A stretch of 64,000 bases of DNA from assembly GCA_000004695.1 (NCBI GenBank), contig CM000154.2, forward strand, positions 4,352,001-4,416,000, in the 5' to 3' direction. Shown here in pieces: positions 18,850 through 28,044 of the stretch. The first letter of the stretch is position 1, and each line of letters begins with the position of its first letter. The position numbers and the translations under genes are program-made. The notes beneath the pieces are model-generated. The model was not told the origin of the DNA. It worked only from the letters and a program-made list of their open reading frames with translations, and made no database searches. The DNA comes from Dictyostelium discoideum. Lineage: Eukaryota.

Positions 18850-21203
18850 ATGAATGATATAATATTAGATAATAACAAATGTACATATCATACAAATACA
18901 AAGCTAAAACTTTTATGTTTAGAATGTAAATTTATTCCATGTTGTATTCAATGTATTTCTAAAGATGGTGAACACCATGGTCATAAAACAAATTCTATAG
19001 ATTCAATGGAAACATCAAATATTCTTCAAATGATGAATTTATTTAAAAATGATATTATTCCAAAATTAAAAGAAACAATAGAAAATGAAAAAAAAATAAT
19101 TTATGAATCTGACAATATTTATAATGAAATTAAACAACAATATGAAAATAATAAAAATTTAGTAATAAATGAATTTAATAAATTTCATAAAATACTTCAA
19201 ATTCTTCAATTAGATATTGAAAAGCAATTAGAAACATCATTTGACCAAAATACATTAATAAATACTATTATTAATTCATCAAAGAATAATAAAAATAATA
19301 ATAATAATAATGATAGTAATAATAATAATAATAATAATAATAATAATAATAATAATAATAATAATAATAATAATAATAATAATGATAGTAATAATAATAA
19401 TAATAATAATAATAATAATAATAATAATAATTATAATAATAATAATAATAATAATTATAATAATAATAATAATAATAATAATTATAATTATAATAATAAT
19501 AGTAATAGTGATGATGAAAATAATAATATAATTAATAATGATGATATCATTTATGGTATTAATATAGAATCAATAAGTAATGAAATAGATAATTTCAATT
19601 ATACTCACTTACAAAATTGTGATGAAAATCAAATTTATAACTGGCTTGGAAATCAAGAAATTTATCAATTATTGAAAAAATATCAACAATCATCATTAAT
19701 AGTCAATAATAAAAATAATATTAATAATTTAAATAAATTAAAAGAATATAATAATCAATCAATAGTATTTAATAATCAAAAAATAGATGATATTAAAAAT
19801 AATTTAAAATTAGTTTATGAATTTGATAATATTAACAACCAAAATAATAAAAACAATTTTAATATTATAGAGAATAATAATAGTATAAATAATAATAAAA
19901 ATGAAAGATTAAAGATTGAAATTGATGAAAATAATTTTAAATTTATAAAGAGTAAGTGTATAAATTGGAAATAAAAAATGTAATTATTAATAATGTATAA
20001 TAAAATTATAATATTCATATATTATAATTAGAAAATTTTGAAAAAATTTATATATATTCAGAGAATAGTGAATTTTCAGATTATCAAGATAAAGAAGCAA
20101 TTGCATTTGGAGAAGATTGTGGTAGTTTATTAAAATTTAATTCAAAAACAAATTTAACGAGTGTTATGTTATTAGATGGGTTTAAAGAAAGTTTAGAACC
20201 AGGTGTATTACCAAATGGTATTAAGAATTTAGAAATAGGTGATATTAAAACACCACTAGTAGTTGGATCAATACCATCAACCATTACAAGTTTAACGTTT
20301 CATGATGGATTTAATCAATCATTAGAACCTGGTATATTACTAAATGGTATTAATTATTTAGAAATAGGTGATATTAAAACACCATTAGTAGTTGGATCGA
20401 TACCATCAACTGTTTCAAGTTTAACATTCCATGATGGATTTAACCAATCATTAGAGCCTGATATTTTTCCTTCTTATCCACAAAATAATGAAGATATGTC
20501 AAATATATTGTCATTTTCATCCATCGGAGGTGTAAAATACTTAACATTACATAATATTAAAAGTGAACTAAACATTGGATCAATTCCAGAGTCAGTATCG
20601 CGTTTGACACTAAAAGATGGATTCTCTCAAACATTAAAGCCAGGTGTTATTCCAAGAAGTGTTAAAACTGTAATATTACACGAAATAACAAAACCATTAA
20701 AAATTGGATCAATACCAAATACAGTTTTAACAATTAGATTTTATAAAGGCTTTAACCAATTACTTACAGCAGGTATTATACCAGATGGTGTTAAATCATT
20801 AGAATTCAACCAAGTTAAGGACCTATTGATTGTCGATTCAATTCCTAAATCAATCTATTCATTATGTTTTGGGTATGGTTTCAATCAAATAATATCACCA
20901 GGTATAATTACTAATGGAGTGTGCGAGTTACATTTGGCAGAAATTAAACAACCATTATTAGTGAATTCAATACCAAACTCTGTCACCAACTTGATTATCA
21001 ATAATGGATTTAATCAATCACTATCACCAGGAATCATTCCAAATTCAATAAAGGTATTAACATTAGGTTATGAAAACATACAATTAGTTGAAGAATCAAT
21101 ACCAAAAACAGTACAAGAAATTATTTTATATGGTAAAATTCAACCATCATCATTAGATATTTGTAAATTAGATAAATCTGTAAAAATAATAAAATATGAA
21201 TAA
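18850..21203 (+). CDS. B-box/FNIP paralog (copy 6), apparently intact. Two exons: 18850..19951 and 20032..21203 (alternative acceptor gives 20062). It has a long poly-Asn tract and an internal duplication of the first two FNIP repeats.
   Basis: The ATG at 18850 begins [14 protein letters not shown]. The track ORF starts 32 codons earlier, inside a poly-T promoter run. The donor a|GTAAGT is at 19952 in phase 1. The acceptor TTAG is at 20030-20031. The frame is open across the splice: ..KFIK|[41 protein letters not shown]. Confidence 0.65.
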
Positions 21204-21936
21204 TTATAAATAATTAAGTATTATTCCGATACCAATTCTCAAATATTACAGGATTAATTAATTTCAGAAATACTTCAAGTTCCTCAATAAAATTTCGAAA
21301 GGCAGCCAAAAACAAAAGATTTAAAATTATTTTTTAGATATTAATTAAATAGGTTTCAATTAAATTACATTTCTGGTAGCAGTAATAACATTTATTTTAA
21401 TAAAAAAAAAAAAAATAATAATAATTACTCATTTTATTCAATTTTAATTTATACTAATTATTATTATCATACAAGTAGTAAACAAAGGAAGAGTATTTGA
21501 TGTTTATCAAGTATGTGTTTATTTTATTTTATTTTATTTTTTTGTAAAATTTTTATTTTTCACTCGATTAAATTGAAACTAATTTCTTTTTGATCCTTTA
21601 TTATTTACAAATATTCTACTATCCATCATTTTCTCCTCTTCCTCTTTTTTTAATTCTTGTAAATTTTAATATTTGAGAATGGATAGGTATAATACTCTTT
21701 TATTTATTATTATTAATATTTATTTATTAATACAGATTTATCCAATTTACATCTAACCCAATTCACACCTAATTTTATTAAATCTGATTTCGATAGGTGA
21801 TTTAAATTTACAAGATAACACGTTTCTAATGGTTGTTCGATTATATCGTAAATAGAACTTGTGGCGGTTATTGGTTATTATTATTAGTTGTTGTTGCTTA
21901 TTAATGATATTACTATTACTTCTATTGCTATTATTA

Positions 21937-22003
21937 ATATTACTATTACTATTACTATTACTATTACTATTACTATTACTATTACTATTACTATTACTAT
22001 TAG
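21937..22003. repeat. (TATTAC)~11 hexanucleotide repeat.
   Basis: Direct reading of the sequence. Confidence 0.9.
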
Positions 22004-25665: not shown

Positions 25666-26103
25666 TAATAATAATAAATATGTCTATATCCATTCTCAAA
25701 TATTAAAATTTACAAAGAATTAAAAAAAAGAAAAAGGAAAGGAAGAAGGAGAAAATGATGAGTAGTAGAATATTTGTAAATAATAAAGGATCAAAAACAA
25801 AAAATAAATTCCATCAATTTTATCCTTAATTATTATTATATTTTTAAATTTTTTTTTTTTTTTTTTATTGAAATTATTTTTTAAATATAATCAATTTTAT
25901 ATTTTTTTTTAATTAAAATAAAAGCTAGATATTTTTTTTTAATTAAAATAAAAGCTAGATATTTTTTTTTTTTTTTTTTTTTAAATTTTTTTTTTTTTTT
26001 TTTTTTTTTTCACTCCAAATCAAAAAGTTTTGTTTAATTTTATTTTTAGTTTTTCAGATAAAAAAAAAAAAAACATAAATACTTTAATAATTCTTTTTTT
26101 AAT

Positions 26104-28044
26104 ATGATTGAAAATAAAATAGAACAGAACTGTGCACTCCACACAAATAAAAATTTAGAATTTTTATGTTTAGATTGTAAATTAATACCATGTTGTACAT
26201 TATGTATTTCTAGAGGAGGTGAACATCATCGTCATGGAATTGATTCATTAGAATCAATACAAACATCTTCAATTCTTTCAATGATGAATAGTTTTAAAGA
26301 TGTTTATCCAAAAGTAATTGAAAGAATAGAAAATGATCAACAGATATTAAAAGATTCTGATGAAATTTTCAATGAAATTCAATCACAATATAATAAAAAT
26401 AAAATCACACTAAACCAAGAATTTAAAAAAATTCATAACATACTTTCAATACTTGAATTGGATATTGAAAGACAATTAACTACAGATTTCGAAATAAATA
26501 CATTAATAAATACAACTATAACCTCTTCAATAAATAATGATATTGACAATTATAATAAAAATAAAAATAATAATTCAATCACAGATATATTAAATATTTC
26601 TATAAAAAATATACAACAATATAATGATGATGATTACTATAAAATAGATTCAAATTCAATCGAATTAATAAAACAATACCAACAATCATTACTATTATTA
26701 AATAATAACAATAATATTGATAATTTAAATAAATTAAAAGAATATAATAATCAAACCATTAAATTCGATAACCAAATAATTAATGATATTAGAAGTAATT
26801 TAAAATTAATCTATTCTTTTGAAAATAATAATAATAATAATAATAATAATAATAATAATAATAATAATAATAATAATAATAATAATAATAATAATAATAA
26901 TAATAATAATAAAAAAACTGAAAAATTAAATATTGAAATTGATGAAAATAATTTTAAATTTATAAAGAGTATGTTGTATAAATAAATAAATAGATAAATA
27001 TATATATATAAATAAATAAATAAATATTAACAATATTGATATATTATTATAAAAATAGAACAAAATAAAAAATATTATATTTATTCAGAGAATAATGAAT
27101 TTCCAAAAAATGAAGAAAGAATTGCATTTGGAGAAGGTTGTGGTAGTTTATTAAAAGTTAATTGGAATAAGAATTTAAAGAATGTAATGTTATTAGATGG
27201 ATTTGAAGAAAGTTTAGAACCAGGTATATTACCAGATGGTATTGTACATTTAGAGATATTTGATATTAAAACAGAATTAGCAGTTGGATCAATACCATCA
27301 ACAGTTACAAGTTTAACATTTAATGATGGATTTAATCAATCAATTGAAGTTGGTATTATTCCATCAAGTGTTATTTATTTAGATTTACATGATATTAAAC
27401 AACCATTAAAGATTGGTTCAATCCCACAATCAGTACAAGATTTGAAACTTTGCAATGGATTCTCTCAACCATTAGAACCAGGTATTATTACAAATAAAAT
27501 TAAAACATTAAGTATTCATGAAATTAAAACTCAATTACAAATAGGATCAATTCCAAATAGCGTCACTCATATGGTATTTTACGATGGCTTTAACCAATTA
27601 CTTTCAGCAGGTATTATACCAGAAGGTGTTTCATGGTTATTCTTTTTTAATATAAAAATCCCATTAGTTGTTGGTTCAATTCCTCAATCAATTTATTATT
27701 TAGTTTTCAGTGATGGTTTCAATCAAACAATATCACCAGGTATAATTACTAATGGTGTGGAAATTTTATGTTTACGTGATATTAAACAACCATTAGAAGT
27801 AAATTCAATACCAAAATCTGTAACCAATCTACTTATTGATAGTGGTTTCCAACAACCATTAACACCAGGAATCATTCCAAATTCAATAAAAGAATTAGCA
27901 TTAGGAAATATAAAAACTCAATTAGTTGAAGGATCAATTCCAAAGAAAATTCAAAAAATTATTTTAGATAAAAATTTCAACCAATCCTTAGAAATTTGTG
28001 ATTTAGATAAGAGTGTAGAAATAAGAACAAATTATTTAAAGTAA
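26104..28044 (+). CDS. B-box/FNIP paralog (copy 8), apparently intact. Two exons: 26104..26968 and 27059..28044 (alternative acceptor gives 27089).
   Basis: Exon 1 is about 97% identical in nucleotide sequence to exon 1 of copy 7, apart from the Asn tract. The donor a|GTATGT is at 26969. The acceptor AAAAATAG is at 27056-27058. The FNIP exon resembles that of copy 1 rather than copy 7. Confidence 0.65.

Follow-up and report, generated by a model that had tools for sequence, protein, structure and literature searches.

How do neighbouring copies of a gene come to share one half of their sequence and to differ in the other? The question is raised by a stretch of 64,000 nucleotides (nt) of Dictyostelium discoideum DNA (strain AX4, chromosome 5; contig CM000154.2 of assembly GCA_000004695.1, positions 4,352,001 to 4,416,000; hereafter the window), which carries on its plus strand, between 6.1 and 28.0 kb, eight tandem copies (c1 to c8) of one gene type. 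The protein part encoded by exon 1 of these genes comprises a putative B-box zinc finger, a coiled-coil-like region and poly-Asn tracts, that encoded by exon 2 the FNIP repeats, and a phase-1 GT-AG intron of 77-95 nt separates the exons. A first-pass annotation had distinguished three types of exon 1 (A, B and C) and two types of exon 2 (X and Y), and had read their different pairings as the outcome of recombination or gene conversion among the copies, with the breakpoint at the intron. The pairings as such, A+X in c1, B+Y in c6, C+Y in c7 and C+X in c8, describe the sequence correctly. Here, we argue that one event explains all four of them, very probably a single non-crossover interlocus (ectopic) gene conversion of ~1.3-1.4 kb from the c8 lineage into c7, with c1, c6 and c8 as native genes and c7 as the mosaic.

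The c8-like tract in copy 7

In DNA alignments of whole units, c7 and c8 are 92-99% identical from ~23400 to ~24800 and 56-78% identical elsewhere, while the identity of c7 to c6 reaches 85-92% only from ~24544 to the stop codon and lies at 72-80% in exon 1. Informative sites place the limits of this patch more closely. At the sites where c6 and c8 differ, c7 has the c8 state in 240 of 274 cases within 23386-24720 and in 82 of 272 outside, and a two-breakpoint chi-square test (MaxChi) gives a value of 186, compared to a maximum of 22 in 200 permutations. The same tract is recovered with c4, c5 or c1 as the alternative parent (3' end estimates 24647-24805), and in the triplet c8/c1/c7 the informative sites are c7-like in 95% of cases within the homologous stretch of c8 and in 51% outside it. 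A scan of all triplets yielded no independent event besides the one between c7 and c8; the other high-scoring triplets set whole genes against intergenic flanks and were read as alignment contrast, not recombination. Examined by the same informative-site method, the negative controls c4 and c5, which are uniformly c6-like, and the out-of-locus copies R1 and R3 are without a c8-like tract.

The tract starts ~37 nt before the ATG, takes in exon 1 and the intron completely and reaches ~125-285 nt into exon 2. In the first 144 nt of the coding sequence c7 and c8 are 97.2% identical, in agreement with the 97% noted at first pass for type C, and over the aligned exon 1 they are 95.0% identical. In gap-tolerant alignments the c7 intron is 94.8% identical to that of c8 vs 84.1% to that of c6. 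The intron, where the breakpoint had been placed, is wholly c8-like, and the exchange is bounded instead by two breakpoints, one before the ATG and one in exon 2.

The 5' breakpoint lies between 23379 and 23386. Immediately upstream, c7 keeps B/Y-lineage promoter-proximal sequence (..TTAAAATACTGTCACTGCATAATAACAACACATT), which aligns to c4 with a score of 39.5, to c2 with 26, to c5 with 23.5 and to c6 with 20.5 (shuffle maxima 18.5-20.5; 19 for c4), while the score against the upstream sequence of c8 is 15.5, below the shuffle maximum of c8. A 19-nt motif occurs in the 64 kb only at 18736 (c6) and 23353 (c7), and over the upstream 300 nt c7 and c8 are 75% identical in a gap-tolerant alignment. 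The 3' breakpoint lies inside exon 2, in a patchy zone at 24647-24805; sites at which c7 equals c8 and sites at which it equals the Y copies interleave between 24650 and 24805, and the exact end of the tract is uncertain within ~160 nt. This zone overlaps the first FNIP pair, of which c7 has a 129-nt tandem duplication, also present in c6 at 20193-20464 (2.1-2.2 copies with 88-89% matches in c6 and c7) and single-copy in c8. The duplication, common to c6 and c7 only, marks the two as sisters within the Y clade. The tract ends in the first duplication copy of c7, to which c8 is 93% identical vs 80% to the second.

A pure (AAT)n run encoding ~66 Asn in c7 (23831-24036) lies inside the tract, with its c8 counterpart at 26512-26560; a gene of D. 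dimigraforme has no poly-Asn there. Judged from these sequences, the run may have expanded in c7, or decayed in c8, after the conversion.

Exon trees, exon types and direction of transfer

Neighbour-joining trees (Jukes-Cantor distances, 500 bootstraps) were built for four segments, with the divergent family member c9 as outgroup; one D. dimigraforme gene and the copies R1-R3, which stem from a second locus of a different D. discoideum strain, were added. In the N-terminal part of exon 1, c7 and c8 group together with 100% support and are joined by the D. dimigraforme gene with 98%, while c2, c4, c5, c6 and R1 form a B clade (100%). The pair (c7,c8) is recovered again in the C-terminal part of exon 1 (100%) and in the first 267 nt of exon 2 (96%). 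In the last ~670 nt of exon 2, c7 falls within a Y clade of c3-c7 and R1-R3 (100%), with c8, c1 and the D. dimigraforme gene outside. The trees of the two exons are thus incongruent, as the first-pass annotation had supposed, but solely in the placement of c7, and the breakpoint scan of aligned units likewise returned its two breakpoints in that gene.

The status of the types differs. Types A and C of exon 1 occur as they had been quoted; type B is close to its description in c5 and c6 and approximate in c2, while c4, assigned to it as well, is a frameshifted pseudogene. The signatures of exon 2 are found where they had been reported, X in c1 and c8 and Y in c4-c7, where it consists of a linker and a tail signature, but X is not a phylogenetic group. 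Over 668 columns of the 3' part of exon 2, the identity of c8 to c1 (71%) is no higher than that to D. dimigraforme (71%) or to the Y copies (71-73%), and a clade of c1 and c8, considered as a candidate, was rejected, being absent from the trees and from the triplet scan. Of the motif by which X had been defined, the second half (GIIPSSV..LDLH.IK) marks c1 and c8, as does the tail NFN.SLE.C.L, while the first half (LEI.DIKT.L.VGSIPS.V..L..NDGF.Q) is located inside the tract and fits c7 bar one residue. Since the GIIPSSV..LD unit of c8 is found alike in c1 and D. dimigraforme, the unit is ancestral. Type X is an ancestral layout or grade, comprising c1, c8 and two D. dimigraforme genes (the tail is also found in c9), and type Y a derived clade. 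In the D. dimigraforme genes exon 1 is C-like and exon 2 X-like, and with X ancestral the pairings A+X and C+X need no recombination. Every other Y gene for which exon 1 is available (c4, c5, c6 and R1) has type B, and R3 and the protein P0019 are consistent with this in their available parts.

Synonymous divergence (dS, Nei-Gojobori) shows the same boundary. Between c7 and c8 it is 0.095 in the tract and 0.53 in the 3' part of exon 2; between c7 and c6 it is 0.44 in exon 1 and 0.19 in the 3' part; between c8 and c6 it is 0.40 and 0.50, respectively. Because silent sites and the intron are also highly identical between c7 and c8, their similarity does not stem from selection, and because the divergence of c8 from c6 is roughly uniform along the gene, it is c7 and not c8 that is mosaic relative to c6. 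On the donor side nothing has changed, as c8 is without a Y-like segment. The B/Y flanks on both sides of the tract, the type-B exon 1 of the other Y genes and the C/X pairing in D. dimigraforme together identify c7 as the recipient and the c8 lineage as the donor. Copy 7 thereby combines what is expected of gene conversion, i.e., a two-breakpoint patch, flanks of the recipient lineage, incongruent trees, homogenised silent sites and an unchanged donor.

The sequence of steps would be as follows. Originally, copy 7 would have been a sister of copies 4-6 with the pairing B+Y, and a break in it would have been repaired by homologous recombination with the adjacent c8 as template. We infer that c8 itself, rather than another C-type copy, was this donor. 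The heteroduplex would have begun shortly before the ATG, at the point where the AT-rich spacers cease to align, and ended in the first FNIP repeats, where the 129-nt duplication of c7 and a Y-specific linker break the collinearity with c8. The product has a promoter of B/Y type; its B-box, coiled coil and first FNIP units (~amino acids (aa) 1 to 383-435 of 721) are of type C and the rest is of type Y. This chimera may have functional consequences. The dS values suggest an order of events from the split of C/X from B/Y (~0.4-0.5) through the Y-clade duplications, including that of c7 (~0.19), to the conversion (~0.095). As a dating reference we used the neighbouring RNase Z gene, with a dS of 0.237 between strain AX4 and D. 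citrinum. On that scale, and with few sites, the conversion would be younger than the split of D. discoideum and D. citrinum, the Y-clade duplications of approximately similar age to that split, and the separation of C/X from B/Y older.

Weighing the alternatives

Four other explanations can be set against the conversion. An unequal crossover between a misaligned c8, contributing the 5' part, and a c6-like gene, contributing the 3' part, would produce the observed order c6 - c7 (C+Y) - c8 in one step, and the 3' junction, lying inside exon 2, would fit it. It would also leave c8-like sequence upstream of c7, where the matches of 23300-23379 are to c4, c2, c5 and c6, with none to c8, and the identity to c8 over 300 nt is only 75%, and it needs two halves of equal age, where dS is 0.095 in the c7-c8 tract vs 0.19-0.21 in the 3' part shared by c7 and c6 (p ~0.02 in a rough two-proportion test). 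The spacers on the two sides of c7 (2.2 kb to c6, 0.44 kb to c8) are moreover dissimilar, and altogether we regard a crossover as improbable. Somewhat less probable still is a conversion in the reverse direction, in which c7 was natively of type C and donated its front part to c8, which had earlier combined another type of exon 1 with X. The tract alone is silent on direction, and exon 1 of c7 and of c8 are about equally similar to D. dimigraforme (77 and 76%). Such a transfer is at odds with the B/Y lineage of both flanks of c7 and with the type-B exon 1 of the other Y-type genes; the dS between c7 and c6 jumps from 0.19 to 0.44 across the boundary, while that between c8 and c6 stays uniform, and genes with C-like and X-like parts exist in D. 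dimigraforme.

Repeated exon shuffling by recombination within the intron, as supposed at first pass, would account for the four type combinations, which do occur. With the intron inside the tract, c8-like sequence running at least 124 nt into exon 2, X not a clade and c7/c8 as the sole independent event in the all-triplet scans, we consider it very improbable. The possibility that nothing was exchanged, with the likeness of c7 and c8 due to an assembly error or to an N-terminal module under strong purifying selection or convergence, has in its favour that their similarity peaks in the B-box and coiled-coil region (97-99%). The equal similarity of synonymous sites and intron, the sharp boundaries and the agreement of an independent assembly (GCA_054883475.1, see below) leave it next to no probability.

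Several points weigh against the conversion from c8 to c7, or against its details. Few changes underlie the dS estimates (in the tract, 16.5 synonymous differences), and the evidence from the 5' flank consists of only ~80 nt of AT-rich sequence. Ten Y-like sites are found at 24650-24750, and the c8 state equals the outgroup state at three or four of them; the tract may thus stop nearer 24650, with short extra patches beyond. As the comparison within AX4 was made in the window, the donor may be a closer C-type copy elsewhere in the AX4 genome. The MaxChi test was home-made, not a maximum-likelihood method, GARD or RDP, and the trees are neighbour-joining only.

If the conversion from the c8 lineage into c7 is accepted, the array offers a clean and datable case of ectopic conversion between adjacent paralogues of D. 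discoideum, and the picture of the array changes from free reshuffling of exons to a single event whose tract ends at the 129-nt duplication and not at the intron. The process would be of a known kind and the instance new, and a new biological question would arise only if the family has a role in recognition or immunity.

The array, its annotation and comparable systems

The coordinates of the array and of the features discussed above are given in Table 1. The reading frames of c1, c6, c7 and c8 are intact, and those of c2-c5 are truncated or frameshifted. These four consecutive dead copies, half of the eight-copy array, are a case of birth-and-death turnover. The FNIP family of Pfam (PF05725; cut-off 21) matches c7 with 180.7 bits (E 4.6e-54) in 7 stretches and c8 with 199.9 bits (E 4.7e-60) in 10 stretches. 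The scores for the B-box (PF00643), 23.4 bits in c7 and 23.7 bits in c8, stay just below the gathering cut-off of 24.1; the sequence displays the Cys/His spacing C..H..(n)C..C..(n)CC..C..(n)H..H, and relatives in the database have precomputed PF00643 matches.

Table 1. Coordinates in the window of the tandem genes, the converted tract and associated features.
Feature	Position	Strand	Basis and remarks
Copy 1 (c1), A+X	6106..8111 (exon 1 6106-6907, exon 2 7003-8111)	+	Front part of DDB_G0290679; trees; most divergent plus-strand copy
Copies 2-5, B/Y-lineage pseudogenes	8447..18357	+	tblastn map; three-frame translations with stops and frameshifts
c2, exon-1 fragment only	8447-9181	+	tblastn map
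c3	~10393-12965	+	Without B-box; ~0.77 kb of unrelated sequence (11508-12275) between exon-2 pieces
c4	~13698-15557	+	Frameshifts and stops
c5	~16529-18357	+	Frameshifts and stops
Copy 6 (c6), native B+Y, 757 aa, intact	18850..21203 (exon 1 18850-19951, intron 19952-20031, exon 2 20032-21203)	+	Spliced model; trees
c7 5' flank with B/Y-lineage promoter-proximal sequence	23300..23379	+	Alignment scores vs shuffles
Probable c8-like conversion tract in c7 (MaxChi optimum)	23386..24720	+	Informative sites, two-breakpoint chi-square, alignments, site polarisation
Copy 7 (c7), 721 aa, intact	23423..25665 (exon 1 23423-24446, intron 24447-24523, exon 2 24524-25665)	+	Spliced model
129-nt tandem duplication of first FNIP pair, c7	24661..24948	+	Tandem Repeats Finder, 2.2 copies
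c7 exon 2 3' part, Y lineage (FNIP repeats and tail)	24806..25665	+	86.7% to c6, 77.5% to c8; tree
c8 stretch homologous to the tract	26063..27340	+	Presumed donor or donor's descendant
Copy 8 (c8), native C+X, 616 aa, intact	26104..28044 (exon 1 26104-26968, intron 26969-27058, exon 2 27059-28044)	+	Spliced model
Copy 9 (c9), divergent family member, tree outgroup	37816..39535	-	tblastn map; syntenic D. citrinum orthologue

A second chromosome-level assembly of D. discoideum, GCA_054883475.1, is 99.6% identical over 22 kb, with 17 gap openings and 9 mismatches; the gaps may sit in microsatellite runs such as (AAT)n. Its gene calls of 757, 721 and 616 aa have the lengths of our spliced models of c6, c7 and c8. 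Since the independent assembly has the same array structure, the mosaic in c7 is not an assembly artefact. In the protein collection that we searched, an exact look-up of the three spliced models gave no match, and homology searches with full c8 and with exon 2 of c7 never returned c6, c7 or c8 among the 8000 candidates that were scored, those with the most shared (poly-Asn and FNIP) words; a search with the type-C exon 1 gave two weak matches only. All three genes, apparently intact, are yet absent from that collection, which may mean that in AX4 they are unannotated or labelled as pseudogenes. An annotated AX4 protein at the upstream end of the array, DDB_G0290679 (815 aa), consists of c1 in its front part and of the c2 exon-1 fragment in the rest (window 6106-9181), and its model omits the C-terminal residues and the stop codon of c1 itself (..NFNESLEN joined directly to YNNNNKCSFHPNK..). 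From its sequence, it seems that annotation has fused a gene and the adjoining pseudogene fragment into this protein.

The open reading frame (ORF) at 35215-37647 is an exact match to the AX4 RNase Z DDB_G0290623. In the window the array is flanked by a PAQR-like gene at 4438-5592 and by a 720-aa gene at 28155-30317. AX4 and D. citrinum (L005 10001-21719) share the gene order c9 orthologue, RNase Z, kinase-like gene, Ser/Thr-rich coiled-coil gene. At the syntenic locus of D. citrinum, the 880 nt beyond the orthologue of the 720-aa gene, where c8 ends in AX4, contain no FNIP reading frame, and the array may be absent from this species or located farther off. A second cluster of B+Y-type copies is found beside an SPX/EXS gene in another D. 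discoideum strain (L001 6200-13700), where two copies have the same orientation and the third is inverted, and in D. cf. discoideum (L004 10001-11700); its members are 80-90% identical to copies 3-7. As a counterpart of the array these loci, which encode the B+Y proteins P0010 and P0019, were rejected, because they represent a different locus, and they were kept as extra family members and controls.

In the same organism, interlocus gene conversion and mosaicism have been described for the tgrB/tgrC cluster (bioRxiv 10.1101/2025.10.22.684067; PMC12745789), which likewise consists of clustered paralogues and pseudogenes subject to birth and death. The Tgr proteins differ in that they are cell-surface proteins with recurrent exchange, extreme polymorphism and diversifying selection, whereas the array appears to have undergone one old event (dS ~0.095) that both compared assemblies contain, and no sign that diversity is selected for was found in it. 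The B-box and FNIP protein AreA (DDB_G0279871) binds Atg101 and restrains autophagy (PMC4554924). It is the only experimentally characterised protein with a B-box zinc finger and FNIP repeats that we found in a literature search, and it is likened to the array by this domain pair only, as it has an extra DUF4559 domain and is encoded by a single gene outside the array. In Dictyostelium, FNIP repeats belong to the commonest domains, and their combination with a B-box is a known architecture there. Our literature search found no paper on the array or on its conversion.

Beyond Dictyostelium, the plant NBS-LRR and the primate KIR/TRIM clusters are composed of tandem genes that join an N-terminal signalling or oligomerisation module to C-terminal repeats, with many pseudogenes, and conversion or unequal crossover in them yields chimeric combinations of N- and C-terminal parts. 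They differ from the array, in which one exchange is seen among eight copies, and we know of no immunity or recognition role for the Dictyostelium genes. One could nevertheless imagine that the array is a fast-evolving recognition or immunity-like cluster, in which recurrent conversion pairs B-box/coiled-coil (TRIM-like effector or oligomerisation) modules anew with different FNIP (LRR-like binding) modules and in which c7 was kept because its new pairing was useful. As hints in this direction, the ratio of non-synonymous to synonymous divergence (dN/dS) between paralogues is high (0.5-0.8), c7 keeps an open frame of 721 codons and pseudogenes make up half of the copies. Between c7 (24524-24790) and c8 (27059-27325), the first FNIP units have 16.5 non-synonymous and 2.5 synonymous differences, with a dN/dS of 1.65 as a point estimate from small counts, and the changes since the conversion are mostly unique to c8. 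We hold a recognition cluster to be improbable.

Some further features of the window can be added. Its G+C content is 12-30%, and a tRNA scan of it returned zero tRNA genes. A perfect poly(A) run of 58 nt is found at 18626-18683, ~170 nt upstream of the start codon of c6, and shorter A/T runs occur at the equivalent upstream position in c7, c4 and c2. On the minus strand at 727-2592, an ORF of 621 aa contains four near-identical repeats of ~150 aa (THDIRANLEA.IKGIQ...QKTQW.FQQWSNGL.IKEEFNENKGPAP), parted by linkers rich in Thr, Pro and Ala. Here, apart from the array, an internal duplication or homogenisation would have taken place very recently.

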